From the NCBI GenBank assembly GCA_963699165.1, contig OY969413.1, forward strand, positions 660,562 to 724,561: 64,000 nt of DNA, in the 5' to 3' direction. This stretch comes from Candidatus Kaiserbacteria bacterium (GTDB lineage Bacteria; Patescibacteriota; Minisyncoccia; Phycocordibacterales; Phycocordibacteraceae). Of the stretch, positions 2,534 through 63,009 are shown piece by piece (position 1 is the stretch's first letter; each line of letters starts with the position of its first letter). A program made the position numbers and the translations under genes. The notes below the pieces were generated by a model. That model saw nothing but the letters and a program-made list of their open reading frames with translations, was not told the origin of the DNA and ran no database searches.

Positions 2534-3377
2534 GGGTATTAAGAACGAGTTGGCACAAGCGTTAATGATTTTAATAAGTAAGTGCGCGGATTTCCGAACA
2601 ATTCCGGTGAGGAAAATCTGAAGCAGAATTCCCTCACGTATTGCTCGAGGTTCTCGCTCCAGTGATGATGATACATCCTCCGCACAAAGGTGCGGTATAC
2701 GCCGAACACGCCTTCGATTTCGGAGGTATGTTCGAACTCGAATTTTGAATGAATGTCTCTGCTGTGGGAGACCGGCCATCGCTTGCCGACACCCCGGTAT
2801 ATCGAACCGCCATCGGTCCACAACTCGCTCCCCGGCTTCACTTTGGCAAAGAGAAAGTCCATCACGTCCGTCTTGTTCGGGAAGCGATTGTGCATGACGG
2901 TATAGGCAAGCTTTCTCGTTCCTTTCTGCTTGGCCATCACGAGAGCTGCGTTCTTGAAATATGCCTCGTCCATCTGCACGATACGCTCGAGAATATGCTC
3001 TTCTTGGGGCAAATGCTCACGAAAGGTGGCATACCAGCGGCGTATCGTTCGTTCAGGCAAATGCGTGAGCTCCATGGCCTGCAAGACGGGTTCTCGTATC
3101 GTCCAGCACCAGAGGAGCATCCACCACGTCTGGAGCGGAAGCTTGAGGTTTGAGAGCCAGGTATGCGAGAGGAGCGAGAACCTTCGGCGGCAGGCAACAC
3201 ACCGGTACCGGTCTTCGTACCGCACAATCCTGCGCGAGCGGCAGAGCGGGCAAAACACATTCTTTCCGAACAACGTTCGCCGCAAAAACTTTCTAATCTG
3301 CACTTCAGACGGAATTTGTTTGAGCGTGTACATAGCTTCCATGATACGGGAGCTGTGCCAACAGAGTCTGAATACCC
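2534..3377 (-). mobile_element. IS1595-family insertion sequence, copy 1 (844 bp). Imperfect ~27-bp terminal IRs GGGTATTcAGActctGTTGGCACA, flanked by an 8-bp TSD ACAATTGA (2526-2533 and 3378-3385).
   Basis: Identical to the element at 27049..27892 in inverted orientation. The TSD is read directly from the sequence. Confidence 0.8.
2539..3342 (-). CDS. IS1595-family DDE transposase (267 aa) with an N-terminal zinc ribbon (CPLCRS...CVACRRRF).
   Basis: Same protein as 27084..27887. The ORF-track N-terminal extension to 3456 is read-through into flanking DNA; the true ATG is 35 nt inside the IS end. Confidence 0.8.
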   Translation of the reverse strand: MEAMYTLKQIPSEVQIRKFLRRTLFGKNVFCPLCRSRRIVRYEDRYRCVACRRRFSLLSHTWLSNLKLPLQTWWMLLWCWTIREPVLQAMELTHLPERTIRRWYATFREHLPQEEHILERIVQMDEAYFKNAALVMAKQKGTRKLAYTVMHNRFPNKTDVMDFLFAKVKPGSELWTDGGSIYRGVGKRWPVSHSRDIHSKFEFEHTSEIEGVFGVYRTFVRRMYHHHWSENLEQYVREFCFRFSSPELFGNPRTYLLKSLTLVPTRS

Positions 3378-3488
3378 ACAATTGAAGCATTGACAGTATG
3401 TCAAACGAGGCGTAAACCAATATGTAGAGAACCCCTTTTGGGTTCGCCCTCCGCACTTCGGTGCGGTTTGTCCTTGGGAGTTACTTTT

Positions 3489-8741: not shown

Positions 8742-9347
8742 CTACTCCAAAATCCCGTCGAGATTTACGTCGTAAAGAATGGCTTCGTTAATGAGACGAT
8801 ATTTGACGATTTCCTCAGGAGCAAACCAGTGTTTGATTTCTGCGTCTGACTCGGCTACCGAACCGGATGCGTGAATCAGGTTACGAACAGCCCGCTTGTC
8901 AGTATCGGATATCTGGTACGAATCCAAAACAAAGTCACCTCGAATGGTGCCGACATCAGAACTAAGCGGTTCAGTACCTCCCGTAATCTTGCGAACAATC
9001 TTGACCGCGTGTGCGCCCTCGATGACGAGGAAAATCGCCGGACCGGAAGTCATATATTTTTTCAAACCCTTCAGAATGGCTGCGGTAATTTCGAGCGGAT
9101 CTTCAGACGGCGGCGTAAGTCCTTTTTCTTTATAGGAACGGATAGTCTTCTCGCCCGTGACGCGGCGCCACTCCGGGTCAAGTGTGTAGTGCTGTTCGAT
9201 TTTCTCTTCAGTCGGAATCAACATCTTCATCGCAACGATTTTCAGTCCAACACGCTCGTAGCGCTGGATAATCTCTCCGATGAGCGAGCGCTGAATACCG
9301 TCTGGCTTTACGATGACGAGCGTTTGTTCTGTTTTAGGATGTGCCAT
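8742..9347 (-). CDS. ndk: Nucleoside diphosphate kinase (long form with an internal insertion).
   Basis: TLVIVKPDG, IGEII.RYE, GTIRGDF and FAPEE motifs. Confidence 0.85.
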   Translation of the reverse strand: MAHPKTEQTLVIVKPDGIQRSLIGEIIQRYERVGLKIVAMKMLIPTEEKIEQHYTLDPEWRRVTGEKTIRSYKEKGLTPPSEDPLEITAAILKGLKKYMTSGPAIFLVIEGAHAVKIVRKITGGTEPLSSDVGTIRGDFVLDSYQISDTDKRAVRNLIHASGSVAESDAEIKHWFAPEEIVKYRLINEAILYDVNLDGILE

Positions 9348-9379: not shown

Positions 9380-10144
9380 TTATGCGGTGATAATACGCGC
9401 TCCGTTCTTTTCTATCAAGATGGTGTGTTCGAAGTGTGCGCTTTTCGAGCCGTCCTTTGTGCGATACGTGTAGCCGTCGGGCGCGAGCGTCACGGCGGCT
9501 TTCCCGGCGGTCGCAATCGGTTCGAGCGCGAGCACCATACCCTCCTCAATGAGCGGCCCCTGATTCGGACGGCCGAAATTCGGAATAAACGGTTCCTCGT
9601 GCACAACGTCGCCGACGCCGTGACCGCCGAGTTCTTTCACGACCGAAAATCCAGCGCCTTCGATTTCTATTTGAATCGCATTTGAAACTGCACCCATTCG
9701 ATTGCCAGGTAGTGCTGCAGCAATGCCGGCAGCGAGCGCGACTTCGGTCGCGCGAAGAAGCTTTTTCGTTTGGTCGCTTATCTCGCCGACCGGAACCGTA
9801 ATCGCCGCATCAACGACAATGCCATTGTGAATGAGACCGAGGTCGAGCGAGACGATGTCGCCCGTTTTCAGCTTCTTTGGCGATTCGTTTGGAATGCCGT
9901 GAACAACCTCGTCGTTTATGGAAACGCAGAGCGTCGCGGGATACGCGCGGCGCGCGCCTTCGGGCGTGTAATTAAGAAATGCGGGCTCGTCGCCGCCGTC
10001 GCGGATGACCTGCTCGGCCAAATCATCCAGCTCTTCGGTCGTCACGCCGGGCGCAACTTTTGAGCGCAGCGTTTTCAGGAGCGCGCCGAGACGCTTCCCC
10101 GCTTCGATGAGATTCGCCCGTTCTTCGTCGGTCTTGATAATCAT
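9380..10144 (-). CDS. map: Methionine aminopeptidase type I.
   Basis: Typical MAP-I sequence with metal-ligand residues. Conserved position after adk. Confidence 0.9.
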   Translation of the reverse strand: MIIKTDEERANLIEAGKRLGALLKTLRSKVAPGVTTEELDDLAEQVIRDGGDEPAFLNYTPEGARRAYPATLCVSINDEVVHGIPNESPKKLKTGDIVSLDLGLIHNGIVVDAAITVPVGEISDQTKKLLRATEVALAAGIAAALPGNRMGAVSNAIQIEIEGAGFSVVKELGGHGVGDVVHEEPFIPNFGRPNQGPLIEEGMVLALEPIATAGKAAVTLAPDGYTYRTKDGSKSAHFEHTILIEKNGARIITA

Positions 10145-19288: not shown

Positions 19289-19624
19289 TTATTTTTCCGA
19301 AGCGGCGGAACCTGCGCCCGCGACAATCGCAAACCGCTTCAACTTTGAAATCGGGCGCGTTGCCTGAATGGTGACCGTGTCGCCGACCTGCGCCGCGTTG
19401 CCCGGATTATGCGCAAGAAACTTCTTCGAGCGCACAAAGTACTTCTTGTACTTTGCATTCTTCTCGAAGCGGTCGACCTGAACGGTGGCCGTGTCTTTCA
19501 TCGCCGTCTTTATGACAACGCCGGTGAATGATTGGGGGCGGGTCCCGTTAGAAGCGCCCTTAGCGAGCGCATCGGACGCCTTTGAATCATTGTTTCTAAC
19601 GGGACGGGTAGTTTTTTGTTCCAT
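19289..19624 (-). CDS. rpsQ: 30S ribosomal protein S17 with a ~30-aa N-terminal extension that contains hairpin H1.
   Basis: S17 core FTGVVIKTAMKDTATVQVDRFEKNAKYKKYFVRSKKFLAHNPGNAAQVGDTVTIQATRPISKLKRF. Confidence 0.85.
   Translation of the reverse strand: MEQKTTRPVRNNDSKASDALAKGASNGTRPQSFTGVVIKTAMKDTATVQVDRFEKNAKYKKYFVRSKKFLAHNPGNAAQVGDTVTIQATRPISKLKRFAIVAGAGSAASEK
19542..19605 (-). repeat. Hairpin H1: arms GTCCCGTTAGAA / TTCTAACGGGAC (12-bp perfect inverted repeat) inside the rpsQ N-terminal extension.
   Basis: Read directly. Member of the CCGTTAGA/TCTAACGG family. Confidence 0.6.
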
Positions 19625-19628
19625 AAAA

Positions 19629-19895
19629 TTATTTTGCTTTCTGCGCTCGTGCTCCGTTAGAGGCGCTCGCGGTAGCCGAGCCAGACGCCAAAGGCGTCTT
19701 GCCTCTAACGGAGCGAGCATGCTGCTCGGTAAGAATGCGGGCGACCGTTGCGCGAAACTTCCGCGCGGCGTTTGGGTTCTTCGGGCGAGAACCGGCCTTG
19801 GCAAAGCGCTCGCCGCGCAAATCCGCGCGCGTCGCCGCAAGAAGCTTTTCAAGCTCCTCTCCCGTTTTCCCTGCCATGGTATCTTTTTTTGTCAT
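19629..19895 (-). CDS. rpmC: 50S ribosomal protein L29 with a C-terminal extension that contains hairpin H2.
   Basis: L29 core EELEKLLAATRADLRGERFAKA... between rplP and rpsQ. Confidence 0.8.
   Translation of the reverse strand: MTKKDTMAGKTGEELEKLLAATRADLRGERFAKAGSRPKNPNAARKFRATVARILTEQHARSVRGKTPLASGSATASASNGARAQKAK
19649..19719 (-). repeat. Hairpin H2: arms GCTCCGTTAGAGGC / GCCTCTAACGGAGC (14-bp perfect inverted repeat) inside the rpmC 3' end. The loop holds a smaller hairpin GACGCCaaaGGCGTC.
   Basis: Read directly. Confidence 0.6.
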
Positions 19896-21065: not shown

Positions 21066-21467
21066 TTATGCGAGCGTTACTTTGACGCGGCTTTTCTTGC
21101 GGCGAATCGCAGAAGCGCGGCCGAAGGCGCGCGGCATGTAGCGCTTCATCATGCCCGCGCTTTCGACGACAATCGACTGCACTTTGAGCCCCTCGACGTC
21201 TTTGCCGTCGTTCTTCGCATTGGCGGCCGCGCTCTTGATGAGCTTTGCAATCGGCTCTGCGGCGCGCTTCGGAAGAAACTCGAGTGCGGCAAGCGCGGAC
21301 GTAACCGTCTTCCCTTTTACGAGGTCGGTCACAAGGCGGACCTTGCGCGGTGTCTGGTTGTAGGTTTCGAGAGATGCGCGCGCCCCGTTAGACACAACAG
21401 AAACAGTCGCCGCGTTGCTTTTGCGGACGCCTTTTGTTTTCTTTTCTGTTGTAGCTGTTTTAGTCAT
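21066..21467 (-). CDS. rplV: 50S ribosomal protein L22.
   Basis: L22 sequence and synteny. Confidence 0.9.
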   Translation of the reverse strand: MTKTATTEKKTKGVRKSNAATVSVVSNGARASLETYNQTPRKVRLVTDLVKGKTVTSALAALEFLPKRAAEPIAKLIKSAAANAKNDGKDVEGLKVQSIVVESAGMMKRYMPRAFGRASAIRRKKSRVKVTLA

Positions 21468-21482
21468 AGGTGTCTAACGGGG
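21383..21482 (-). repeat. Hairpin H3: arms CCCCGTTAGACAC / GTGTCTAACGGGG (13-bp perfect inverted repeat, ~75-nt spacer) enclosing the rplV start codon and 5' coding region.
   Basis: Read directly. The upstream arm lies in the rpsS-rplV spacer; the downstream arm encodes VSNGA of L22. Confidence 0.6.
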
Positions 21483-21493
21483 TGTGCCATAGA

Positions 21494-31419: not shown

Positions 31420-32619
<1,200 letters not shown>

Positions 32620-32951
32620 AATCGGATAATTTAGTTAGTAATTCACGAAATAAATCCGACGTGAGTCGGAACAAACTCCAAACCCTTCACACTAAGATGG
32701 CGTTGTCCTGCGACAAAACTCTCGATTTTGAGAAATATGTTAGCGCCTACACTTTACGCCAGCTTGAAAGGTGGCGCACTGCAGGACGCTAAGTCGCGAC
32801 GCCATCTTGTGTGCGGGGCAAAGAGCGACGCCAAGATGCGTTATAGGCACTATACGAGAAGCTGTGAGGAAATGCAAGAACAGGAATCTGAATTTACCGA
32901 TACAAGGCCTAAAACAAAAATGCGGGATTGCTCGTGTGCTTTTGGACAAGC

Positions 32952-33581
32952 TTATTTATTCAAAAATTTGAAACTTTGCCAGACACGCTTCGTTTCGTCA
33001 GGCGAAAGGTTGGTGATTATTCCGCTCCACAGTTGTTTATTGTAGTAGAAAAGCACGTCAGTATTCGGATATTCTCCGATTTGAAATTCTGGGGCTTCCT
33101 TGGAAATTCCAAATTTCACGTTATCGACTATTTGATACTTGAGATTTGGATAAGCAAATCCGGGAGATGGCTGGCTATGAACGAAGGACACGAAATCTTC
33201 TACGGAAGAAAACTGCTTTGGGTAAATGGTAAAAAGTATATTTTTGTAGTTTCCAGCGGCAGTTGGCGCAGAAATATTATTGTTAGCGATAACGATAGTG
33301 GAGGTGCCGGCCGGACCGTTCATTATTAAGTGAATTTCATTTGACGGATATTCGAATGAGAAACCATATGCCGTATCGGTATATTGCGACCAACCTCCTC
33401 CAATATCAGTCACGGTCGCATTCGCGTTTTGTACGTTCTGAGTATTTGGTATTGCCTTAATGCCAGAAACTTGAGATGCACCCTCGGTAGGACTTTTCGA
33501 GATAATTTTGGAATACAAAACCGAGCATACTACTGCGATAAGTAACAGGGCAACGATTGTGGGGGCAGTATAGTTTCTCAT
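32952..33581 (-). CDS. N-terminally anchored secreted protein, family A (GGGWSQYTDTAYGFSFEYPSNEI ... SFKFLN).
   Basis: TM anchor plus conserved motif shared with 36202..36879. Confidence 0.55.
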   Translation of the reverse strand: MRNYTAPTIVALLLIAVVCSVLYSKIISKSPTEGASQVSGIKAIPNTQNVQNANATVTDIGGGWSQYTDTAYGFSFEYPSNEIHLIMNGPAGTSTIVIANNNISAPTAAGNYKNILFTIYPKQFSSVEDFVSFVHSQPSPGFAYPNLKYQIVDNVKFGISKEAPEFQIGEYPNTDVLFYYNKQLWSGIITNLSPDETKRVWQSFKFLNK

Positions 33582-33710
33582 GAATTTAACTAGAAACTGG
33601 GCAGCACTTTCATGCTGCCCAGAGTAACACGGACTAAATCCTCTTGTCGCATTGTGAATTTGGCAATTTAGTAAAAGGGCGGTGCCTGTTTTTTTAAAAC
33701 TCTCGTTGCA

Positions 33711-34379
33711 CTAAAACGAAAATGTAAGTTCTCGCACTTTCTTTGGTACGCCCTGTACCCACACGTATGTGTTGATGGTGAAAGAAGTATCGGTATGCGT
33801 TGCTTGTAGATCTTGCTCGCCTCCCATGCAACCGCCGCAATGATCGTATGTCTCATTGCCAGACAGCTTCGCTCCAGGTAGTTGGGTTTCTGACGACTGA
33901 TCCGGCTTATATGTATAGATGTTTTGGCCTTCTACATATACCGCAACTTTGTCAGTTTTAAATAAGGGTTCCCCGGAAATATATGAATCAGATGTTTGAG
34001 ACATGGAATCAAGAATCTGAATCGGGGCAGGGTTGTCAGTCGGCCGCACGACACTAAAAGCCACATATCGCTTACCTACCGCCGACAACGCAATCCCGTT
34101 CTGCAAATAATATTCTTGATTGTTGGGCTCTTGGGCAAGAAGAATGGCTATAATATCTTTTTCAATTCTGTGGAGAACGTCAGCAGAGAGTGTGGTGTGT
34201 TCGTCAATAAATTGTGGTGTGATTCCCTGCAAGTCAGATTGAAGTTGTGCAGATGCGGCTTGAGCAACAGGCGGGACAGAAATAGTTGTCGTAGAAGAAT
34301 GCAACTTCCATATCGCAAAAACGCAGACAAGCATGGCCGCAGCGATAATAATAACGGCAAGAAGAAAATATTTTTTCAT
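33711..34379 (-). CDS. N-terminally anchored secreted protein, family B (C-terminal LSGNETY ... motif).
   Basis: TM anchor. C-terminal ~120 aa paralogous to 34857..36122. Confidence 0.55.
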   Translation of the reverse strand: MKKYFLLAVIIIAAAMLVCVFAIWKLHSSTTTISVPPVAQAASAQLQSDLQGITPQFIDEHTTLSADVLHRIEKDIIAILLAQEPNNQEYYLQNGIALSAVGKRYVAFSVVRPTDNPAPIQILDSMSQTSDSYISGEPLFKTDKVAVYVEGQNIYTYKPDQSSETQLPGAKLSGNETYDHCGGCMGGEQDLQATHTDTSFTINTYVWVQGVPKKVRELTFSF

Positions 34380-34390
34380 AAAGTTGTTTC

Positions 34391-34852
34391 CTATTTTGTC
34401 GGGGCAGTGATAACGTCCTGCGGGTTTGGGCGAACAATAAAATGCACTATGTAATCAGGCATATCTTTTATTGCACTTTTTACCGTCAAATCCACTTCTC
34501 CGTTACCGTCAAATTCATTATAGTAAGACCAACATGCCGGAGTTGCTTCAGAAGCAAATCCCGGAAGTCCGCCATTGGAAATATATCCTGCGGTTGCGTT
34601 ACCGCTCACTGTTTTGAATTGCAGATTATGATCTTTATCGGGATACACGTCTTTGGGCAGATTGATGAATAATCTCGTCGTATCAATTACATTCTGCGTT
34701 GACCCGTTCGGGATGCCGCCGCACAGAAGCACTTTCGCATCGTCGGATGGGATAGAAGTGGGAGTATGCAATTTCAATATTGCAAAAATACAAGCCAGCA
34801 CGGCGAGCACAACGACGGCGACGAGTATTATCTTTGTATTAGTGACTTTCAT
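34391..34852 (-). CDS. N-terminally anchored small secreted protein (154 aa).
   Basis: TM anchor MKVTNTKIILVAVVVLAVLACIFAIL. Confidence 0.45.
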   Translation of the reverse strand: MKVTNTKIILVAVVVLAVLACIFAILKLHTPTSIPSDDAKVLLCGGIPNGSTQNVIDTTRLFINLPKDVYPDKDHNLQFKTVSGNATAGYISNGGLPGFASEATPACWSYYNEFDGNGEVDLTVKSAIKDMPDYIVHFIVRPNPQDVITAPTK

Positions 34853-34856
34853 ATCT

Positions 34857-36122
34857 TTACTGGAACGAAAGCGTCTTTTGCCCAACCTTTGCATACATAT
34901 TGCCTCCGTCCGGATTAGGTACCAACGTGCTTGAGTCATAGGTAACTATGGTAATGCTGCTGTTCGTATGTGTCTCCCGCAGCGTGATTGGGCCCATGCC
35001 ATCGAGTACGCCAAGGTACGTTTCATTTCCCGAAAGCTGCGAACCTGCAACAAGGGTGGTTGTTGATTGATCGAGTGAGTAGGTATACAGAGCCTGGGTC
35101 GTGACATACAGCGCAATGTTTCTCTTGGGTGCGAGATACAAAGCGATGTTGCCCGGTATCGGTGTAATTTCTCCGTTTTGAGAATCGAGAATTGCGTCAC
35201 TCGATTTGTCTGCGCCCGATTGGGTGAAAAGAATGTACCGCTTACCGATAGCATCGAGCCATATGTCGAATTGGAGCATCTTCTCCGGACTAAGAGGAGG
35301 ATTGTTCGGAAACGCCGCAGAATATTGGGAGCTCATCACTATGGCGACATCCGTAGCTATTTTTTTCTCTTCGGCAGTCAAATTCTGCTCCTGCTGCCAC
35401 GTTGGGACAATGAAATGAGGTGTGACGGGGAGCAAATCCGTCCGCAATTGAGAAAGCGCAACATCATCGGGTGAAGGTTCCGTGGAAGTGCTGAACGCAA
35501 ACGTGCCAATCATTTCTTCGGCACTTTTGTCATAGAGAGGATACCGGATGAGAAGTTTAGTGCCATCGTTATTTTCGACGGTTATAAGATTTTGCGTAAC
35601 GCCGTCCGGAATGATACTGCCATTCCCTTCGGCAGTGTTCGTAAATCCTTTGGTGAGCGAAAAGGAATACGCTCGGTGTCCCGCAAAAGTTATCGGTACG
35701 AGAGCGCCTATCTGCCGGTCTTTTAGGTTCGGGTTCGAATCGTCAACTTGATACTGCCGAAGCGTCGAAGCGAACTGCTGAAGCGGTTCTGCTAGTAGGT
35801 CATCGTATTCTTTACCGGAATGCAGTCCCGTCGCGAATGCTTGTATGTCGATTTCGGTCGTGGTTCCCGGCAAGTAAATCATTGCGTAAGAGGTTTTGTT
35901 TTGAGATTCGTTCTCTTCTTCTATAAAACGATCGACTAGAGAACCTGGCGCATATTTTATCGAATATTTATAGGCGGTGTTGCTGTATATCGACCACGAA
36001 GCAGTATCGACGGTTGCCGTGACTGCGTGAAATTCCCACACCGCAATACACACAAGACCCGCGATAATCGCGAGCGATGCAATTAGAATGATGGGTTTTT
36101 TGTTTTTTGTGGAAAGGGCCAT
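34857..36122 (-). CDS. N-terminally anchored secreted protein, family B (421 aa).
   Basis: TM anchor. C-terminal paralogy with 33711..34379 (GKRYI.F, LSGNETY, TLSF). Confidence 0.55.
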   Translation of the reverse strand: MALSTKNKKPIILIASLAIIAGLVCIAVWEFHAVTATVDTASWSIYSNTAYKYSIKYAPGSLVDRFIEEENESQNKTSYAMIYLPGTTTEIDIQAFATGLHSGKEYDDLLAEPLQQFASTLRQYQVDDSNPNLKDRQIGALVPITFAGHRAYSFSLTKGFTNTAEGNGSIIPDGVTQNLITVENNDGTKLLIRYPLYDKSAEEMIGTFAFSTSTEPSPDDVALSQLRTDLLPVTPHFIVPTWQQEQNLTAEEKKIATDVAIVMSSQYSAAFPNNPPLSPEKMLQFDIWLDAIGKRYILFTQSGADKSSDAILDSQNGEITPIPGNIALYLAPKRNIALYVTTQALYTYSLDQSTTTLVAGSQLSGNETYLGVLDGMGPITLRETHTNSSITIVTYDSSTLVPNPDGGNMYAKVGQKTLSFQ

Positions 36123-36201
36123 ATATTGAAGCCGAGAGGTATGAGATAAGTATACAGAATAGGGAGGTCTCCGATGATAGGAATGTCAAAAAATCCGGCA
36201 C

Positions 36202-36879
36202 CTATTCTCTGTTGAGAAAAGCTATACTCTTTACCATGCGCTGTGTATCGGCTTGAGAAAAACCGCCGATACTCATGAACACCTCTTTATTCTTATGCAT
36301 ATAAATTAAGTTCGTTTCCGGAGGTTGGTCCCATTTATCCGTTTTCGTGATGTAATCGTCCGGCGCAAGAGAACTAAAAATTAATACCCTGACGCCATTC
36401 ATCGTTTCAAACCTAAGGTTCGGAAACTCATCGCTAAGGAGCAGTCCGCGCTTGAGAATTTGGGCCTGCTGTTCAGCAAGCCAGTTATCAATCGTCCCTA
36501 ACCCATCCGTCGATGTTGCAGAAATTTCAATTTCTTTAAAATCTGTTCCCGGTGAAGCGGAATTTACAAAATTGTCCATTTGCATAAAACTCGCATTAAA
36601 GTCGGCGGGATTACTCCCCCAATTCTGACGAATTTCATCTGACGGATACTCGAACGACATGTCCAACGCCGTATTTGTATATCGCGACCATCCTCCGCCC
36701 AAGTCCTGCAAGCTTCCAAATGTCTTCAGGTCTTGCACCGGCGTCGGAATTTTTTGCGCATCCAAAGTATTCAAAGCATTTTGCCGGTACAAAAGAGCGG
36801 CCTCGGTGCCAAGAAGCAATACAAGGAACATCAGCACATAGAAAATATTGCTTCCCACTGGTTTATTAAAAAATCGCAT
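36202..36879 (-). CDS. N-terminally anchored secreted protein, family A (GGGWSRYTNTALDMSFEYPSDEI ... SIAFLN).
   Basis: Paralog of 32952..33581. Confidence 0.55.
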   Translation of the reverse strand: MRFFNKPVGSNIFYVLMFLVLLLGTEAALLYRQNALNTLDAQKIPTPVQDLKTFGSLQDLGGGWSRYTNTALDMSFEYPSDEIRQNWGSNPADFNASFMQMDNFVNSASPGTDFKEIEISATSTDGLGTIDNWLAEQQAQILKRGLLLSDEFPNLRFETMNGVRVLIFSSLAPDDYITKTDKWDQPPETNLIYMHKNKEVFMSIGGFSQADTQRMVKSIAFLNRE

Positions 36880-36967
36880 GACGACATGCTAGCACGATAG
36901 ACGAATCATAAGCGCCGAAAAATTTCTATGCTTATATCCAAGCTTGACCCTCGTAAAGTACCTTAAC

Positions 36968-37210
36968 TTATTTTGGCCAAGCAAGATAAATTTGAACTCC
37001 AGAAGCAGTAATTGATAAAATTATCGCGATGATTGCAATTGTCAGTGAGTAGACCGCGAATCTTTTTGATGACCTTGAATCTTCTAACGAAATCCTCCTC
37101 AGGAGTTCGTATGACGCTAGAACGCCGTGCGAAGGATCGCTTATGTTGATGTACTCCAGCAATTCCGTTTCTGTAAGATTTTGAATTGGTTTGCCAAAAT
37201 TGTTTATCAT
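36968..37210 (-). CDS. Small protein with a C-terminal TM helix (80 aa).
   Basis: ORF track. Hydrophobic C-terminus. Confidence 0.3.
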   Translation of the reverse strand: MINNFGKPIQNLTETELLEYINISDPSHGVLASYELLRRISLEDSRSSKRFAVYSLTIAIIAIILSITASGVQIYLAWPK

Positions 37211-37404
37211 TTTAATTCTTCGTGGTCAGTATTATAATCCAAATACAAGAGAATAGGGGTTTGGGGAGCTTTATTGTTTAACCATTTCCAGAGGTTTCAA
37301 TGCGGACAAAGCCGCGGTAAAATTGTATATATGAAAATCGTAAAAATTGTGGTCGGGAAAGATGATGATATTTTCGGGCTTGGCGACGATAATCTCATGT
37401 ACAT

Positions 37405-37653
37405 TTGGAATCAGTATTCAGCGTCTTGGGATTTGATCTCAGTCAAAAAGCCATGAAAGGAGTAGGCGGGGCAATCCTTTTTGGATTTGGGCTACTTGGG
37501 CTAATCGGAACTCAACAGAAAGAATTGGGGCTGTTGTGGCTCTGTATATTCATGGCCATTTTTGCAGTTGGACTTTATTTTTGGGTGGACGATATGTTAG
37601 ACACGAAATTAGAAAAATTAAAGAAAGAGATTCTCTCGGAAATCGGACATTAA
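37405..37653 (+). CDS. Small two-TM membrane protein (82 aa).
   Basis: ORF track. Two hydrophobic helices. Confidence 0.3.
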   Translation: MESVFSVLGFDLSQKAMKGVGGAILFGFGLLGLIGTQQKELGLLWLCIFMAIFAVGLYFWVDDMLDTKLEKLKKEILSEIGH

Positions 37654-37844
37654 GGTATCATTTGTATTTTCCCCGTTAAGAAGTAATTTCAGCACGCAAT
37701 GACCCCTTTACCACAACACCGCCGGATTACCGGCGGTGTTGTGATGCGCGGCAGGTGTCCGCCGCGTTGGTTTACTTTCTGGACGCGATTTTTTGATTAC
37801 GAGGCTCGACCTCATAAAAAACGGAGTGCCACGCGGACTTATCT

Positions 37845-38201
37845 CTAATTTTTTATCTCGGGAATCGGATGTTCTTCGAGGTACTTCGCGAGCGGCGCTT
37901 CAGTCTCGTGCAATTTTGAAATGACGTCATTCCACACGAGCGACAGCAAAATTTCATAATATTCATGTACGACAACATCCCGAAAGCCGGCGATTTTCTT
38001 CCACGGCAAATCTATTTCGGCTCTTGCTTCTTCGGAAACGCGTTTCGCCGTCTCGCCTATCTGTTGCAATTGCATCAAAACGGCATCTTGGGTTTTGCTG
38101 TCCTCGAGAAACTCTTCGTACCTTTGCGTGCCAACATACTGTCGTATGTGCGATATGCATTCGAGCATTTGAGCAATGTACGGACTATCACTCTTTTTCA
38201 T
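37845..38201 (-). CDS. hepT: HepT-like HEPN toxin (DUF86) of a HepT/MntA type VII toxin-antitoxin pair.
   Basis: Rx4HxY motif FRDVVVHEY. Overlaps the end of the upstream MNT gene by 14 nt. Confidence 0.75.
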   Translation of the reverse strand: MKKSDSPYIAQMLECISHIRQYVGTQRYEEFLEDSKTQDAVLMQLQQIGETAKRVSEEARAEIDLPWKKIAGFRDVVVHEYYEILLSLVWNDVISKLHETEAPLAKYLEEHPIPEIKN

Positions 38202-38484
38202 ACAGCATTTTGAGTTCCGGAACGATGTAGGGACGCATAAATTTATTGATAGTTCCTTCGGCCACAACATCGACTTCCCGCTCGAGATTTTGCTCAAGCT
38301 GTTCTTTCAAGTCCATATATGAATACAATCCCATCTGCGGGTCGATTTTAACGAGAATGTCGACATCGCTTTTCGGAGTCGCTTCACCACGCGCAAAAGA
38401 ACCGAATATTTGCGCACGCGTTACGCCGTACTTCTCAAATACGGGGCGTGCCTTTTCTGCGATTTCATCCACTGTCGGTTGCAT
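38188..38484 (-). CDS. mntA: MntA-like minimal nucleotidyltransferase antitoxin (Pol-beta superfamily).
   Basis: GSFARGEATPKSDVDILV nucleotidyltransferase motif. Confidence 0.8.
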   Translation of the reverse strand: MQPTVDEIAEKARPVFEKYGVTRAQIFGSFARGEATPKSDVDILVKIDPQMGLYSYMDLKEQLEQNLEREVDVVAEGTINKFMRPYIVPELKMLYEKE

Positions 38485-38500
38485 GAGCGGATTTTACCAT

Positions 38501-38543
38501 AAAACACATGCGTGACCGGCGAAGCCGGTCACGCATGTGTTTT
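38501..38543. terminator. Perfect 20-bp hairpin AAAACACATGCGTGACCGGC gaa GCCGGTCACGCATGTGTTTT between fusA and mntA.
   Basis: Read directly. T-runs on both sides. Confidence 0.6.
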
Positions 38544-38562
38544 CTATTTTGTTTGCGATGGT

Positions 38563-40710
38563 TTACTTTCTGGACGCGATAATGTCCGCAGCGACGTTGT
38601 TTGGCACGGTGTCGTAGTGGTCGAATTCCATCGTCATTGAGCCGCGGCCTTCGGTCATGGAGCGAAGAGTGGTCGTGTAGCCGAACATTTCGGAAAGTGG
38701 CACTTTTGCGCGGATGGTTTTGTTCATGCCGCGGTCTTCCATGCCTTCGATTTGTCCGCGCTTGCCCGAAAGCGAGCCCGTGATGTCGCCCATGAATTGC
38801 TCCGGCACGATGACTTCGACGCGCATAATCGGTTCAAGAATTACCGCCTTCGCGCGGCCTGCCGCTTCCTGAAACGCCATCGATGCGGCGATTTTGAATG
38901 CGATTTCCGAAGAGTCGACATCGTGGTAGGAGCCGTCGTAGAGGTCGACGGAAATGTCCACCATCGGGAAGCCCGCGAGGAAGCCGCGCGCCATCGCTTC
39001 GCGAACACCCTTCTCCACTGCGGGAATGTATTCCTGCGGAACCACACCGCCTTTGATGTTGTTGATGAATTCAAAGTGGTCTTCGCGTGTGATGTTTTTT
39101 GCAATCTTCGCGCCTTCCACAAGCGGCTCCATTTTCTTCATCTTGATTTTCACGTGACCGTACTGGCCGCGGCCGCCGGTCTGCTTGATGTACTTCCCTT
39201 CTGCATCGGCAGAACCAAGAATCGTTTCGCGGTACGCCACCTGCGGTTTGCCCACATCGGCAACGACATTGAATTCGCGCTTCATGCGGTCAACGAGAAT
39301 TTCAAGATGCAACTCGCCCATGCCCGAGATAATCGTCTCGTTGGTTTCCTCATCGGTCTTGATGCGGAAAGTCGGGTCTTCGTCGGAGAGTTTGCGAAGC
39401 GCAATACCCATTTTCTCTTGGTCGGCCTTTGTCTTCGGCTCGATGCGAAGCGACACCACCGACTCCGGAAACTTAATCTCTTCAAGCACAATCGGACTCG
39501 CCTCATCGCAGAGCGTGTGCGACGTCTTTGTGTCTTTGAGACCAACGGCTGCAGCTATTTCTCCTGTGAAAACCTTTTCAACTTCTTCGCGCTTGTCTGC
39601 TTGAAGGCGGACGATACGGCCGACGCGCTCTTTCGAGCCGGTCGTCGAGTTGTATACATACGAACCGGCCGTGAGCGTACCGGAGTACACGCGGAAGAAG
39701 GTGAGTGCGCCGACAAACGGGTCGGTTTGAAGTTTGAATGCAAGCGCGCAGAACGGTTCGTCGTCGGATGCATGGCGTTCAATCGGCTCATCTGTCTTCG
39801 GGTCTTTACCGGTCGTAGGCGGAAGGTCGAGTGGCGAAGGAAGATAGTCCACAACAGCATCAAGCACGAGCTGTACGCCCTTGTTTTTGAGCGCACTGCC
39901 GCAGTACACCGGAAATACTTCATTGTGAATAACCGCCTTGCGAAGAAGCGCCTTGAGTTCATCAATGCTCGGCTCCTTGCCTTCGAGATAGGCATTCATC
40001 GCCGTGTCGTCCTGCTCGACGATGCGCTCGATGAGTTCGCCGCGGAATTTCTTCGCGTCGTCCAAAAGATTTGCCGGAACTTCGCCTTCGACAACGTCTT
40101 CGCCCATGTTGCCCGTAAAGGTGTACGACTTCATCGAAAGAAGATCGACGACGCCTTCATGCGCGGACTCTTCGCCTATCGGAATCTGCATGCGAATCGC
40201 TTTCGGCGATAGGCGGTCAAGAATGCTTGCGTACGAGCGCTCAAACGATGCGCCCGTGCGGTCGAGCTTGTTGATGAAACAAACGCGCGGCACTTTTGCC
40301 TCATCGGCGTAGCGCCAGTTGGTTTCGGACTGCGGTTCGACGCCGGCAACGCCGTCAAAGACGACGACTGCGCCGTCGAGAACGCGCATGGAGCGCTTCA
40401 CTTCGGCAGTGAAGTCGATGTGTCCCGGCGTGTCGATAACATTGAAACGGAATTTCTTCGCTTTATCTTTTTTGTCCTTCTCGCTCGTGCGCGTCCAGAA
40501 ACAGGTAATGGCGGCGGCCGTGATGGTGATGCCGCGCTCGCGCTCCTGCTCCATCCAGTCGGTGGTCGTCTCGCCTTCGTGCACTTCGCCGATTTTGTGC
40601 TGCGAACCGGTATAGAAAAGCACGCGCTCGCTGGTCGTCGTTTTACCGGCGTCGATGTGGGCGATGATTCCGAAATTACGAACTTTCTCGAGTGGATAGT
40701 CGCGGTTCAT
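38563..40710 (-). CDS. fusA: Elongation factor G.
   Basis: AHIDAGKTT GTPase motifs; 715 aa; after rpsG. Confidence 0.95.
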
Positions 40711-40791: not shown

Positions 40792-41256
40792 TCACCACGC
40801 AAAGTGAGCAAATGCCTTGTTGGCGTCTGCCATGCGGTGCATCTCGTCCTTCTTCTTGATTGCATCGCCTTCGTTCTTTGCGGCAAGCAGGAGTTCGGCG
40901 GCGAGTTTCTCGGCCATCGGCTTCCCTTTCTTTGCGCGGGCGGCATTGATAATCCAGCGGAACGAGAGTGCGAGGCGGCGCGTCTGCGGAACTTCGCGCG
41001 GCACTTGGTAGTTGGCGCCTCCGACGCGGCGGGAGCGGACTTCCATCAAAGGAGACACGTTGCGAAGCGCGGACTCAAACGTCTCAAGTGGATTCTCTCC
41101 GCCCTTCTCGATGACGGCGAGCGCATCGTATACGACTGCACGGGCAGTGTCTTTCTTTCCGTCCCACATGACGGCATTGATAAAGCGGGAGAGGGTCTCT
41201 GAACCGTATTTGAGGTCAGGACGCCACGTTCGTTTCTTTTTAAGAGGTCGGCGCAT
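40792..41256 (-). CDS. rpsG: 30S ribosomal protein S7.
   Basis: S7 sequence. Start taken at MRRPLKKKR. Confidence 0.9.
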   Translation of the reverse strand: MRRPLKKKRTWRPDLKYGSETLSRFINAVMWDGKKDTARAVVYDALAVIEKGGENPLETFESALRNVSPLMEVRSRRVGGANYQVPREVPQTRRLALSFRWIINAARAKKGKPMAEKLAAELLLAAKNEGDAIKKKDEMHRMADANKAFAHFAW

Positions 41257-41386
41257 ATCAGTTTTTGAAAGCACCAATTCCCAAATTCGAAATATCAAAC
41301 AAGTCGGAAACGCCGTTCGAATTTGCTGTCTTGTATTTTGAGAATTGAGATTTCATATTTATTTGGAATTTGTTGCTTCGAATTTT

Positions 41387-41803
41387 TTATTTTGCTTTAC
41401 TGGGGCGCTTCGCACCGTAGCGAGAGCGGCCGCGGCGGCGCTTCTCAATGCCGCTCGTGTCGAGCTTCCCGCGAACGATGGTGTACTGCACGCCGATGTC
41501 TTTCACGCGGCCGCCGCGAAGCAAGACCACGGAGTGTTCCTGCAGGTTGTGGCCTTCGCCCGGAATGTAGGCCGTGACTTCCATGCCGTTTGTGAGGCGG
41601 ACGCGGGCGATTTTACGAATAGCGGAGTTCGGTTTTCTCGGGGTCTTGGTGGTCACTTTCGTGCACACGCCGCGCTTAAACGGCGAGGAGTAGAAGGTAG
41701 GACGGTTCTTAAGTGCGTTAAAACCGCGGGCCAATGCAGGCACGGTCGTCTTGCGCGACTTGTTCTTGCGTCCTTTCTTTGAGAGTTGGTTAATTGTAGA
41801 CAT
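41387..41803 (-). CDS. rpsL: 30S ribosomal protein S12.
   Basis: S12 sequence (PKKPNSA.RK ... GGRVKDLPGVRY-like). Confidence 0.9.
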
Positions 41804-41916: not shown

Positions 41917-41950
41917 ATACGCAAATACTACCATATATGGTAGTATTTGC
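41917..41950. promoter_or_regulatory. Perfect 34-bp palindrome ACGCAAATACTACCATAT|ATATGGTAGTATTTGCGT ending 2 nt before the ATG of the YerC/TrpR-like gene. Candidate operator.
   Basis: Read directly. Core ACTACCATATATGGTAGT is shared with 42396..42436. Confidence 0.5.
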
Positions 41951-41952
41951 GT

Positions 41953-42375
41953 ATGAAAAAGAAGACGGAAGAATTGAGTGAGACGGAACGCACACGGACA
42001 CTCGATGCGCTTTATACCGCGGCCGGAGCAGTGCGGGGCCGCTCCGCCATGAAGCTTTTCCTACGAGATCTTCTAACCGAAAGCGAACGAATCATGCTCG
42101 GCAGACGAATTTTAATCGCCCGGCTTCTTCTGCAAGATGATACTTACGATTCCATCAGGCAACGAACAGGAGCGGGGTATTGCACGATTGAACGCGTTCA
42201 TCGATGGCTGAAAGATCAGTTGCCCGGCTATGAAACCGCCATTGCCGCAATGGAGAAAGAGTTCGATGCGCGCGATTCAAAAAAGGAGTATTCTGAAAGC
42301 CCTCTCTTTCGACTAAAGAAAAAATATCCTCTTCATTTTCTTCTTTTTCCGGAGCCGAAACAGAAAAAGAAATAG
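41953..42375 (+). CDS. TrpR-like DNA-binding protein of the YerC/YecD family.
   Basis: TESERIMLGRRILIARLLLQDDTYDSIRQRTGAGYCTIERV matches the YerC/YecD HTH pattern. Divergent from rpsL. Confidence 0.6.
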   Translation: MKKKTEELSETERTRTLDALYTAAGAVRGRSAMKLFLRDLLTESERIMLGRRILIARLLLQDDTYDSIRQRTGAGYCTIERVHRWLKDQLPGYETAIAAMEKEFDARDSKKEYSESPLFRLKKKYPLHFLLFPEPKQKKK

Positions 42376-42395
42376 ACAGGTGCTCCGCGCACGGC

Positions 42396-42436
42396 AAAAC
42401 AAGACACTACCATATATGGTAGTGTCTTGTTTTGCC
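42396..42436. promoter_or_regulatory. Second perfect palindrome CAAAACAAGACACTACCATAT|ATATGGTAGTGTCTTGTTTTG with the same 18-bp core. Lies between convergent genes and could also act as a bidirectional terminator.
   Basis: Read directly. Confidence 0.5.
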
Positions 42437-42460
42437 GTGCGAGATTCTTTCCAGCTACAT

Positions 42461-57600: not shown

Positions 57601-59181
57601 CTATTCAAACCCAAACAATCCTCGCGGACGGTATTGCAACGCTTCATGCACGAATGCGGGCGTCACTTTTTCGGAACCGGCAAGGTCGGCGACGGTGCAC
57701 GCAACGCGCATGGTGCGATGATAGCTGCGCGGAGAAAGATTGAGCCGCGTCGCCGCGTTCGTGAGCGCTTCTTTCGCTTCGGCGGTAAAACCGCTTTTCT
57801 CATCGAGCTCGCGGCCGGAGAGCGCGGCATTTGTGAATCCCGGCTTGCCGGTGCGTTTCTCCGCACTCTTTCTCGCAGCGACGACTCGCTCGCGAACTTT
57901 CTCGGACGGTTCGCCGTTTGAAAGTTTTGCGAGCGTGTCATGCGGAACGAGCGGCACTTCAATCCATAAATCGAGACGGTCGACGATGGGACGCGAAATG
58001 CGGCGCGCCTGTTTTGCCGCGGCGCGAAGCGCAACGCGCGAATCGGAAGCAATGGTGTCCGCCGGATTCATCGCGGCTACAATCATGCAGTCCGCGGGAA
58101 AGGTAATCGTCGCGCGTGCGCGCGAAATGGTTACGATGCGGTCTTCGAGCGGCTGGCGAAGCGCCTCGAGCGCTCGAGAATCAAACTCGGGAAATTCGTC
58201 CAAAAACAACACGCCTTTATGCGCAAGCGTTACTTCTCCCGCCTTCGGAAAGGCGCCGCCGCCGACGATTGCAACGTGCGAAACCGAATGATGCGGCGCG
58301 CGAAATGGCGGCCAGTACACCGCTTCCCCGCCTTGCAACAGTCCGGCGGTCGAATGTATGGCCGTCACTTCAAGCATTTCATCATCGCTTAACGGCGGAA
58401 GGATTCCGGCAAGCGCGCGTGCGAGCATCGTCTTCCCCGTTCCCGGCGGTCCGTAAAAAACGATGTTGTGACGGCCTGCGGCGGCAATCTCGAGCGCGCG
58501 TTTCGCGCTCTCCTGCCCTTTTACATCGGCAAGGTCGAGCGCGGGCGGCGGCAACTGCGCACGGCGGTCGCGCACCAACCGAGGCAGCGGCCGCTCGCCT
58601 TTTAGGTGATGCAAAAGTTCCGCGAGCGAACGCGGCGCATAAATCGCCACGCCTTCCGCCAAAAGCGCCTCACGTGCATTTCCGGGCGGCACGAAAATAA
58701 TTTTTGTGCCGTGTCTTTTTGCGGCAAGTACCTGCGGCAATACGCCGCGCACATCGCGCAGCGTGCCGTCAAGTGCGAGCTCGCCGATAAAAAGCATTTC
58801 GTCGACCGGCGAGAGCACTTCGCCCGCGGCGATAAGGTATGCAAGCGCAAGCGCGAGGTCAAAATGCGAACCCTCCTTTTTCAAATCGGCGGGCGAGAGC
58901 GAAAGTACGATGCGCTTGTTCTGCTGCTTCGGAGGTTTGTAGCCCGAGTGGCGGATTGCGGCGCTGATTCTGTCTCGCGCTTCCTCGACCGCCTTGTCGG
59001 CGAGGCCGACGACGGAAAAACTGTGCAGGCCGCGCGTGAGGTCGGCTTCAACGCTGACCAATTCGGCACCGGAGCCGACCGGCTGCGCCGCAAGCGTTTT
59101 TGCGTAACCGACTTTAACCGTTGCGCTTGCGGCGCGCACAGGTGTATTAATTTTCGCGGGCGCCGTCTTTGACGCGGCCAT
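57601..59181 (-). CDS. comM: YifB/ComM-family Mg-chelatase-like AAA+ ATPase.
   Basis: Lon-like N-domain, Walker [10 protein letters not shown]-terminal Mg-chelatase domain. Confidence 0.85.
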
Positions 59182-62088: not shown

Positions 62089-63009
62089 ATGGAATCTGAA
62101 GCGGCAAAGCGGCAATTTCTTGAATATATTGAAATCGAGCGCGGACGCGCCGTAAAAACAATCGAAAATTACGACCGTTATCTCACCCGCTACTTCTCGC
62201 AAATGCATATCAAGAACGTGGGCGACATCACCGAGCAAAACGTGCGCGAATTCCGTATCTGGCTCAACCGCCAACCGGGAACCAAAAGCGATTCGATGAA
62301 ACGCCGCACGCAAAATTACTACATGATTGCGCTTCGCGCCTTCCTCAAGTTCCTCAGAAAGCGCGATATTCCCGCGATTTCTCCGGAAAAAATCGAGCTC
62401 GCCAAACTCCCCGAACGCCAGCTCGACCTCATCACCTCCGCCGAGCTCGAACGCCTCATGCGCGCGCCGCGCGAAGCATTCGAAAAAGAAGGCCGTCCTG
62501 AAAAAGCCATATGCTATCTACGCGATACGGCGATTCTCGAGCTTTTGTTCTCGACCGGGCTTCGCGTCTCCGAGCTTTGCGCTCTAAATGCCGATATCGA
62601 TCTCACGCGCGACGAACTTTCCGTTCGCGGAAAGGGCGAGAAAGTACGGGTGGTATTCCTCTCCCCTGCCGCCAAAGATGCGGTACGCACCTATTTGAAA
62701 GCGAGAAAAGATATGGAGGAAGCGCTGTTTGTCGACGGCAGGCCGGGAAAGCCGCACCGCATTTCACCGCGAGACATTCAGCGGCACCTAAAGGCGTACG
62801 TCTCGCGCGCCGGCATCACAAATGTCGTCACGCCCCATACCCTCCGCCACGCTTTCGCAACGGATTTGCTGAGCAATGGCGCCGACATCCGCTCCGTACA
62901 GCAGCTTTTGGGCCATGCATCTATCAACACGACGCAAATTTACACGCATATCACCGACTCGCATTTGCGCGAGATTCACAAGAAATTCCACGGGAGAAAT
63001 AGAGTTTAA
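62089..63009 (+). CDS. Tyrosine site-specific recombinase XerC/XerD.
   Basis: R...HxxR...Y catalytic motif region (TPHTLRHAFATDLL ... LGHASINTTQIYTH). Confidence 0.85.
   Translation: MESEAAKRQFLEYIEIERGRAVKTIENYDRYLTRYFSQMHIKNVGDITEQNVREFRIWLNRQPGTKSDSMKRRTQNYYMIALRAFLKFLRKRDIPAISPEKIELAKLPERQLDLITSAELERLMRAPREAFEKEGRPEKAICYLRDTAILELLFSTGLRVSELCALNADIDLTRDELSVRGKGEKVRVVFLSPAAKDAVRTYLKARKDMEEALFVDGRPGKPHRISPRDIQRHLKAYVSRAGITNVVTPHTLRHAFATDLLSNGADIRSVQQLLGHASINTTQIYTHITDSHLREIHKKFHGRNRV

Follow-up and report, generated by a model that had tools for sequence, protein, structure and literature searches.

How did a predicted toxin–antitoxin pair, mntA–hepT, come to lie between two copies of the end of fusA, the gene for elongation factor G (EF-G)? 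This question is raised by a stretch of 64,000 nt of contig OY969413.1 (hereafter the window) from a metagenome-assembled, Kaiserbacteria-like member of Patescibacteria. The initial annotation explained the locus by integration of a mobile cassette right at the fusA stop, with duplication of 26 bp, through a site-specific and possibly integron-like mechanism. We propose, as the probable though by no means certain explanation, that the locus represents a 3′-end displacement by recombination anchored in a conserved gene, between spacer versions with and without mntA–hepT.

Two fusA ends in the window

The str operon is located on the minus strand and comprises rpsL (41387–41803), rpsG (40792–41298), fusA, the spacer, tuf (31420–32619) and rpsJ. 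The fusA–tuf spacer occupies 5.9 kb, contains low-GC lineage-specific genes and is the variable hot spot in which the event took place. The features that define the junction are the following:

38563–40710, minus strand: fusA (EF-G, 715 aa), the anchor gene; open reading frame (ORF) with Pfam EF-G domains, 91% identity to the EF-G of relative L005
38555–38580, minus strand: repeat copy E1, the live fusA end (ATC GCG TCC AGA AAG TAA) followed by the 8 nt ACCATCGC
37764–37789, minus strand: repeat copy E2, the displaced 5′-truncated fusA tail with the identical five codons and stop, then ACCAACGC
37712–37767, minus strand: ancestral fusA terminator region with an 8-bp hairpin (37746–37767) and the 14-bp hairpin 2 (37712–37743); fold z = −5.7

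The two copies form a direct repeat of 26 nt with 25 matching positions (GCGTTGGTTTACTTTCTGGACGCGAT at 37764–37789 and GCGATGGTTTACTTTCTGGACGCGAT at 38555–38580), in full agreement with the initial annotation. E2 is located 791 nt downstream of E1, and the insert between them is 765 bp long (37790–38554). The 26-mer occurs exactly twice in the window when up to three mismatches are permitted, while 100 dinucleotide-preserving shuffles gave no match. E1 covers the end of fusA from its fifth-last codon onward (I-A-S-R-K and the stop), together with 8 nt of the 3′ untranslated region (UTR); of the IIASRK-stop previously ascribed to the repeat, the first Ile codon falls outside it.

The 55 nt past E2, including hairpin 2 (a 14-bp stem CACAACACCGCCGG/CCGGCGGTGTTGTG with a 4-nt loop), align to the region after the fusA stop of L005 (score 16, z = 5.1, 0/300 shuffles), the closest species representative, which has no cassette. 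Therefore E2 and hairpin 2 are the old fusA end and its terminator, and the earlier suggestion that the original fusA downstream hairpin follows this copy holds. The window thus shows the topology of 3′-end displacement: a complete fusA, then the cargo, then a 5′-truncated tail in the same orientation together with the old downstream sequence. Since E1 and E2 are identical in their coding part, the event was either recent or took place between near-identical strains.

A chance repeat or an assembly chimera appears extremely improbable. In its favour one can cite the general risk of metagenome assembly and a related contig (L111, see below) that ends inside its repeat. Against it stand the shuffling result and the structure of the locus itself: three independent assemblies (NCBI GCA_049279115.1, Logan SRR27973122 and Logan ERR10755936) agree on it with 100% identity, so that it is not an assembly artefact; moreover, a related structure in L103 was seen again in L104.

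The mntA–hepT unit

The insert between the two fusA ends comprises the following elements:

38501–38543, minus strand: hairpin 1, with a perfect stem of 20 bp, a loop of 3 nt and flanks rich in A/T; centroid −36.8 kcal/mol, z = −7.4
38491–38499, minus strand: TGGTAAAAT, resembling an extended −10 promoter element and located 6 nt upstream of the ATG of mntA; TGGTA core invariant in eight cassettes
38188–38484, minus strand: mntA, 98 aa, predicted MNT-type nucleotidyltransferase antitoxin with the motif GSFARGEATPKSDVDI; Pfam PF01909 (NTP_transf_2) and PF18765 (Polbeta), PADLOC PDC-S09
37845–38201, minus strand: hepT, 118 aa, predicted HEPN RNase toxin with the Rx4H motif RDVVVH; Pfam PF01934 (HepT-like), E = 4e-21
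37790–37821, minus strand: element with the small hairpin h3, TTTTTTATGAGGTCGAGCCTCGTAATCAAAAA (hairpin at 37799–37815), the last element of the insert, abutting E2

Both genes are intact, mntA being upstream of hepT with an overlap of 14 nt. The gene order, this overlap, the Pfam families and both catalytic motifs are shared with the HepT/MntA type VII systems, whereas the proteins differ enough to miss the NCBIfam equivalog cut-offs of 60 bits (HepT_toxin 46.7, MntA_antitoxin 53.4). Judging from the sequence, the pair is a divergent subfamily member of this type, its activity being a prediction.

The similarity among eight cassettes from different contexts starts only at TGGTAtAAT, 6 nt before the mntA ATG, so that the unit consists of the −10 element and two overlapping genes, about 670 nt in total. 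The mntA transcript is probably leaderless and produced from the cassette's own promoter, as the −10 element suggests. Hairpin 1 looks like a terminator separating fusA from the cassette; perfect palindromes with 20–27 nt arms and A/T-rich flanks represent the usual terminator style in the window, such long palindromes being common throughout the genome, and in this respect hairpin 1 is not special. Thus, mntA, hepT and the 20-bp hairpin are all present between the repeats as first described, but not alone, since the small hairpin h3 was overlooked. h3 is homologous to the first element past the fusA stop in L110/L111 (local alignment 20, z = 11, 0/2000 shuffles, one compensatory pair change). 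A DNA search of a plasmid collection and a protein search of a phage collection revealed no close homologue of the cassette.

Two side observations concern the hairpins. A hairpin followed by TGGTAAA, like the −10 element of the cassette, occurs about 60 nt past each fusA tail (37690–37711 and 38485–38500); the similarity of the two flanks is weak (69% over 29 nt, E = 0.65), and the TGGTAAA after hairpin 2 may be a remnant of an older cassette promoter. The h3 core CAAGGTCGAACCTTG was also found in a ribosomal protein region of L012 (position 12784), and in L029 (4610–4680) the arms of a longer hairpin, located about 140 nt past fusA, are made of it. This core may represent a structural motif that recurs in the clade.

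The same subfamily in related genomes

Nine HepT lineages with 58–100% HepT identity were looked up. In six of them (the window, L095–L098, L103/L104, L105, L110/L111 and L112–L114) the pair is located in the fusA–tuf spacer, with HepT identity of 58–82% and EF-G identity of 87–90%, while its distance from fusA and its neighbour genes vary. L111 provides a second fusA case: its repeat extends over at least 134 nt, from −83 to +51 around the stop, and the contig ends inside it.

In other lineages the pair is associated with other genes. In L106 it is bracketed by a repeat of about 62 nt (88–90% identity) that represents the ClpP C-terminus and stop; the hepT frame ends within the displaced clpP tail, and only about 670 nt separate the repeats. 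In L107–L109 the brackets are two copies of the recA 3′ end (71 nt, 75% identity), and the cassette is reversed relative to recA. In L099 the pair is located between gene starts and has no repeat. The sequences that flank the pair at clpP and at recA are unrelated. The view of mntA–hepT as a discrete cassette is therefore strengthened both by the common starting point of similarity in eight loci and by these duplicated 3′ ends, which also supply what had been proposed as a check, namely the same cassette with different flanking repeats.

The frequent occurrence of the pair in the fusA–tuf spacer may suggest a local origin, in which the pair is an old vertically inherited resident, while unequal crossing-over or tandem duplication of a fusA-end unit, with later divergence, produced the repeat. 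The six spacer lineages out of nine agree with this, as does the L111 repeat, which runs at least 51 nt past the stop as a tandem unit would, and the hairpin with TGGTAAA that follows both E1 and E2. However, the two units in the window have no significant similarity beyond the 26-mer, the region downstream of E2 is orthologous to that of a cassette-free relative, and the closest relatives (L005, L006 and L007) do not have the pair. We consider a local origin improbable.

Displaced tails with other cargo

Tails of fusA, about 21–114 nt long, have also been displaced at loci that have no toxin–antitoxin genes. In L013, the 3.1 kb past fusA encode a secreted protein that has a peptidoglycan-binding domain, and next comes a second version of the final 114 nt of fusA. 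In this copy, 98% identity to the live end extends over the first 101 nt, beyond which its five final codons, stop and terminator are different. In L006 and L103/L104, a single hairpin of about 40–50 nt separates the live fusA end from a second tail of about 21–33 nt, which encodes a 10-residue end plus stop in L006 and DIIASRK-stop in L103, with codons differing from those of the live ends. The L103 structure is reproduced in L104 from a separate data set. Over 24 nt, the L006 displaced tail matches the live fusA end of L008 without a difference, and the sequence past the L103 displaced tail resembles the downstream sequence of L008; there too the displaced copy is the older, resident one.

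The displacement footprint is thus not cassette-specific. It recurs at one anchor with variable repeat length and cargo (fusA in L013, L006, L103/L104 and L111), and is found also at clpP in L106 and at recA in L107. A general scan for direct repeats over gene ends in about 1.2 Mb of fetched loci recovered the known cases, the rest being intergenic, and gave no usable estimate of frequency.

The live and displaced tails of these relatives were compared codon by codon, and P was defined as the share of 20000 simulated sets of random substitutions that did as well:

L006: 10 nucleotide differences, 0 amino-acid changes, 0/20000 simulated sets
L103: 7 nucleotide differences, 0 amino-acid changes, 0/20000 simulated sets
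L013: 9 nucleotide differences, 2 amino-acid changes, P = 0.00045
L106: 9 nucleotide differences, 3 amino-acid changes, P = 0.0025
L107: 18 nucleotide differences, 8 amino-acid changes, P = 0.027

This synonymous bias indicates that both tails evolved as working gene ends in separate lineages and were then brought together. A neutral duplicate decaying in place would lose its protein sequence, and the bias is therefore unlike the result of an on-the-spot duplication. Consequently, only a part of the initial annotation of the event is retained: the cassette lies at the fusA stop, and the old tail with its terminator has been displaced, but duplication of 26 bp on the spot does not agree with diverged pairs that differ mostly at synonymous sites.

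As a separate observation, L006 and L103 share the stem of the hairpin at their displaced fusA tails with an inverted-repeat family (CCGTTAGA / TCTAACGG, loops of 36–80 nt) that is found in ribosomal protein genes, namely at the rpsQ 5′ end, at the rpmC 3′ end and around the rplV start. Its sites are:

19544–19603, 19651–19714 and 21378–21487 of the window, minus strand
10173–10214 of L006
5524–5563 of L103

The stem motif has five occurrences against 0.29 expected and is read in frame as PVR...SNG in terminal extensions of ribosomal proteins. The family may represent a palindromic element of small size or, alternatively, an RNA structure that is conserved. The hairpin was considered as a mobile palindrome causing the duplications and was rejected, since only five paired copies exist in 1.2 Mb and none is at the window junction.

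Recombinases and recombination sites

Two rival explanations invoke a cutting enzyme. In transposition-like insertion with a long target-site duplication, an enzyme would make staggered cuts 26 nt apart around the fusA stop, followed by fill-in. Two near-identical copies directly flanking the insert conform to this scheme, and the position could be explained by survival only of those duplications that include the stop codon. However, there are no terminal inverted repeats at the ends of the insert and no transposase at the locus, the IS1595-family transposase gene (2539–3456) being 35 kb from the cassette. In addition, the related repeats range from 26 to at least 134 nt, unlike those of any transposase, the right edges of the cassettes have no conserved end motifs, and the synonymous bias would be unexpected if one copy had been neutral from the start. 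This explanation seems to us very unlikely, and the original statement that the event is not IS-mediated (IS, insertion sequence) is upheld.

A stronger competitor is site-specific integration. Here the 26-mer would be an att core at the fusA 3′ end, into which a tyrosine or serine integrase, since lost or acting in trans, inserted a circle carrying a mimic of the fusA tail. Gene ends are used in this way by some elements; for example, cis-mobilizable elements derived from integrative and conjugative elements sit at the fda 3′ end. The sharp edges of the repeat on both sides and the reconstitution of the gene by the incoming copy agree with such an event, and in L013 a near-identical block at the left is followed by a divergent tail, as expected for a left crossover core. 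The e14 prophage in icd leaves the same footprint in icd/icdC, including mostly synonymous differences (PMC13626634).

The search for the corresponding enzyme was negative. No integrase or transposase was detected by Pfam among the proteins of the window spacer. The 25 fusA–tuf spacers that exceed 900 nt yielded 60 ORFs of at least 90 aa; the scan of those from 23 spacers of further relatives (L103 and L095 being already Pfam-annotated) revealed no integrase or transposase, and no integrase was found beside the clpP and recA cases. The only tyrosine recombinase of the window (62089–63009) is located 24 kb from the cassette and scores as a housekeeping XerD/XerC/XerA type, reaching 130 bits against the 265-bit cut-off for integron integrases.

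The sites are no more consistent with this scenario. No att core is common to all insertions: the repeats measure 26, about 62, 71, 101 and at least 134 nt and are distributed over three genes and both orientations, which would need several lost integrases. The L006 and L103 tails have no identical core at the left edge, and in L106 the approximately 670 nt between the repeats leave no room for arm sites. By inspection, the 26-mer has no inverted arms and is unlike the 28-bp dif-like site with two 11-bp arms of Xer-dependent elements (IMEX/dif module). Neither the 20-bp nor the 14-bp hairpin fits attC, both having perfect stems and the long one being 5′ of the genes; an integron integrase and attI were not found near the cassette. 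The suggested site-specific or integron-like mechanism, as well as the attC-like structures to be sought at the cassette ends, was therefore not supported, the more so as the cassette has its own predicted promoter. Rfam gave nothing relevant for 30.5–42.5 kb, which means that the repeat is not a tRNA or tmRNA fragment, and ARAGORN detected no tRNA in the window. A diversity-generating retroelement was also rejected, since a reverse transcriptase is absent and the differences show no specificity for adenine. Taken for the window alone, site-specific integration is possible; for the whole set of cases we regard it as unlikely.

The cargo of the fusA–tuf spacers in relatives includes secreted peptidoglycan-binding proteins, pilin-like proteins, purD/purN, asparaginase and Phd/YefM-like proteins. 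The spacer length varies from 88 nt to 6.6 kb in Patescibacteria against 56–117 nt at three loci from outside this group, one of them from Moorella. With its changing gene content, its conserved flanking genes and no mobility genes, the spacer has the arrangement of a minimal mobile element.

Proposed course of the displacement

From this anatomy we infer a pathway, together with a direction of transfer and a role for transformation. DNA from a related Patescibacteria cell, probably acquired via natural transformation, would pair with the chromosome through a conserved anchor gene, either fusA or, equally, tuf on the opposite side. Non-homologous joining would attach the other end of the incoming DNA, just past a small hairpin, at a point 18 nt upstream of the resident fusA stop. 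Alternatively, a circularised fragment with a short fusA tail would enter by a single crossover. Either route would result in a complete fusA, the cassette, and a 5′-truncated fusA tail with the old terminator. The incoming piece may have been the fusA tail with the cassette (anchor in fusA) or equally the tail with the downstream block (anchor in tuf). The cassette itself would be a self-contained type VII unit with its own leaderless promoter and would have no enzymatic role in its insertion.

Both partners of such an exchange have counterparts among the relatives: a spacer version without the cassette resembles that of L005, and the donor-type versions correspond to the lineages with the pair in the fusA–tuf spacer. 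The com genes are conserved in Patescibacteria, and Saccharibacteria are naturally transformable (PMC10633639); the window encodes at 57601–59181 a protein that, judged by its Pfam architecture (Mg-chelatase/ChlI), is ComM-like, i.e., a putative competence helicase. The two routes are not equally suitable for all cases. The L006 and L103 tails are only about 70% identical over about 21–33 nt, which makes a crossover inside the repeat implausible; an anchor further up fusA with a non-homologous joint fits better, whereas for L013, L111 and the window either route works. Most likely, conserved genes have served more than once in this clade as anchors for general recombination, and the toxin–antitoxin subfamily was a frequent passenger.

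Several points weigh against this explanation. The 26-nt repeat with sharp edges on both sides also fits a site-specific att core. The left edge of the cassette is alike in three gene contexts, 8–30 nt before the −10 element, which is not expected of random illegitimate joints except where junctions are trimmed by streamlining. A textbook one-sided homologous recombination joint usually deletes recipient DNA rather than duplicates it. The synonymous-bias argument comes from relatives only, the coding parts being identical in the window.

Finally, neither a true empty site nor a donor from the same species was found, the nearest relatives having about 80% nucleotide identity in fusA, and the event is unpolarised. 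The earlier proposal to look for fusA–tuf junctions lacking the cassette thus had a partial outcome: L005, L006 and L007 lack the pair, but none is an empty site from the same species. The predicted empty site would read fusA ... AGAAAGTAAACCA[A/T]CGC joined directly to GGCGGACACC, and the predicted circle junction ... CGTAATCAAAAA, the 26-mer, then AAACAAAATAG. When EF-G, MntA and the two proteins encoded next to E2 on its downstream side were looked up as exact proteins, no sources were obtained other than the same 3–4, all with the cassette; a scan of JGI metagenome contigs for TCCAGAAAGTAAACCANCGC, which sought empty sites or other cargo, gave five unrelated chance matches. A sliding-window mosaic test of fusA against six relatives, all at about 80% nucleotide identity, had no resolution for a recombination tract.

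The position of the joints deserves attention. The incoming DNA ends 0–9 nt past a hairpin in the window, L006, L103 and L111, and the L106 joint is itself a 14-nt palindrome. One can imagine that the HepT/MntA subfamily is an integrase-free mobile cassette that homes to the stop regions of fusA, recA and clpP by a dedicated mechanism, perhaps hairpin-guided because the junctions lie just after a hairpin in the incoming DNA. We consider such homing improbable. If it exists, tail displacement would be a mobility strategy of selfish toxin–antitoxin modules where classical mobile elements are lacking, each time supplying or preserving the gene tail.

Comparison with known systems

The 3′-end displacement that we favour has its closest parallel in the C-terminal displacement of Rhs and type VI secretion system (T6SS) genes. 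For Rhs tips, Jackson et al. (2009) proposed single-crossover entry of an episomal circle that carries part of the conserved core, which explains the variable repeat lengths (PMC2935791); for T6SS effector–immunity arrays, Kirchberger et al. (2017) invoked homology-facilitated illegitimate recombination (PMC5361080). These systems share with our locus the full gene, the cargo and the 5′-truncated 3′ copy, the variable direct repeats and the absence of an integrase. The displaced part there is a variable toxin tip kept with its immunity gene, whereas here it is the invariant tail of an essential housekeeping gene, fusA, recA or clpP; the remnants are tiny (18–114 nt), the cargo is a toxin–antitoxin pair or unrelated genes, and the host belongs to Patescibacteria.

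The minimal mobile elements of Neisseria (Saunders and Snyder 2002) are variable genes between conserved flanks, devoid of mobility genes and exchanged by transformation and homologous recombination (PMC3787668). The fusA–tuf spacer, with its range of 88 nt to 6.6 kb, behaves alike. Exchange through two homologous arms leaves no duplicated tail, while here a non-homologous joint or a circular donor is needed.

In the e14 prophage the element supplies a new 3′ end of icd, and the old tail icdC stays downstream with mainly conservative changes (PMC13626634). As in the window, the incoming 3′ end replaces the old tail, which remains downstream; but e14 has its own integrase and one fixed site, whereas here no recombinase is linked, and target, orientation and repeat length vary. 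With integron cassettes the locus shares a small gene unit beside a fixed point and the shift of older material downstream; it differs in having no attC, no IntI, a predicted promoter of its own, and hairpins that are perfect and wrongly placed.

Other features of the spacer and its surroundings

The rest of the fusA–tuf spacer (32620–37711, minus strand) encodes low-GC lineage-specific predicted secreted proteins in paralogous pairs and ends at the tuf promoter and leader. Five of these proteins, with N-terminal hydrophobic segments, are encoded at 32952–36879 (minus strand), where 225 aa is paired with 209 aa and 421 aa with 222 aa; none has a Pfam match or a homologue among the fetched relatives. 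The tuf promoter region (32820–32877, minus strand) comprises TTGCAT, 17 nt, TATAGT and then a leader of about 25 nt, AACGCATCTTGGCGTCGCTCTTTGG. This leader is near-invariant across eight lineages with otherwise unlike spacers, the window having one substitution; Rfam gives no match to it, and it may be a conserved 5′ UTR element.

Perfect palindromes at 41917–41954 (19-nt arms) and 42388–42441 (27-nt arms) have the common core ACTACCATA/TATGGTAGT and flank a Trp-repressor-like gene (41947–42375), one spanning its start and the other lying just past its stop; they may be operator sites.

In L095, a 202-aa protein (PaaX_M, with a weak CRISPR_Cas2 Pfam match) is encoded between rpsJ and rplC, and its gene is flanked by a 38-nt direct repeat (9266–9303 and 9912–9949), each copy of which is palindromic (TGTTCGTTA...TTACGAACA). 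In more distant Patescibacteria (L035, L053, L062, L063, L073 and L083), the fusA–tuf spacer encodes similar proteins of about 95–125 aa that start like MSKQLKQVINL..KTGDRIIVFD; the one tested, from L063, is called a Phd/YefM antitoxin by Pfam. Toxin–antitoxin-type genes may thus be widespread in this spacer.

Significance for Patescibacteria

Patescibacteria have tiny genomes with few recognisable mobile elements, and the ways in which they gain genes are poorly understood. Our analysis suggests that small cassettes beside the most conserved genes use these genes as homology anchors for uptake into other lineages, and that short displaced gene tails are left as datable scars. For annotation, this means that the 26-mer is to be described as a gene-tail remnant and not as an att site. 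If the phenomenon is general, gene-gain events in uncultured bacteria could be detected and put in order by means of such tails, and it would explain why toxin–antitoxin pairs cluster beside essential genes.

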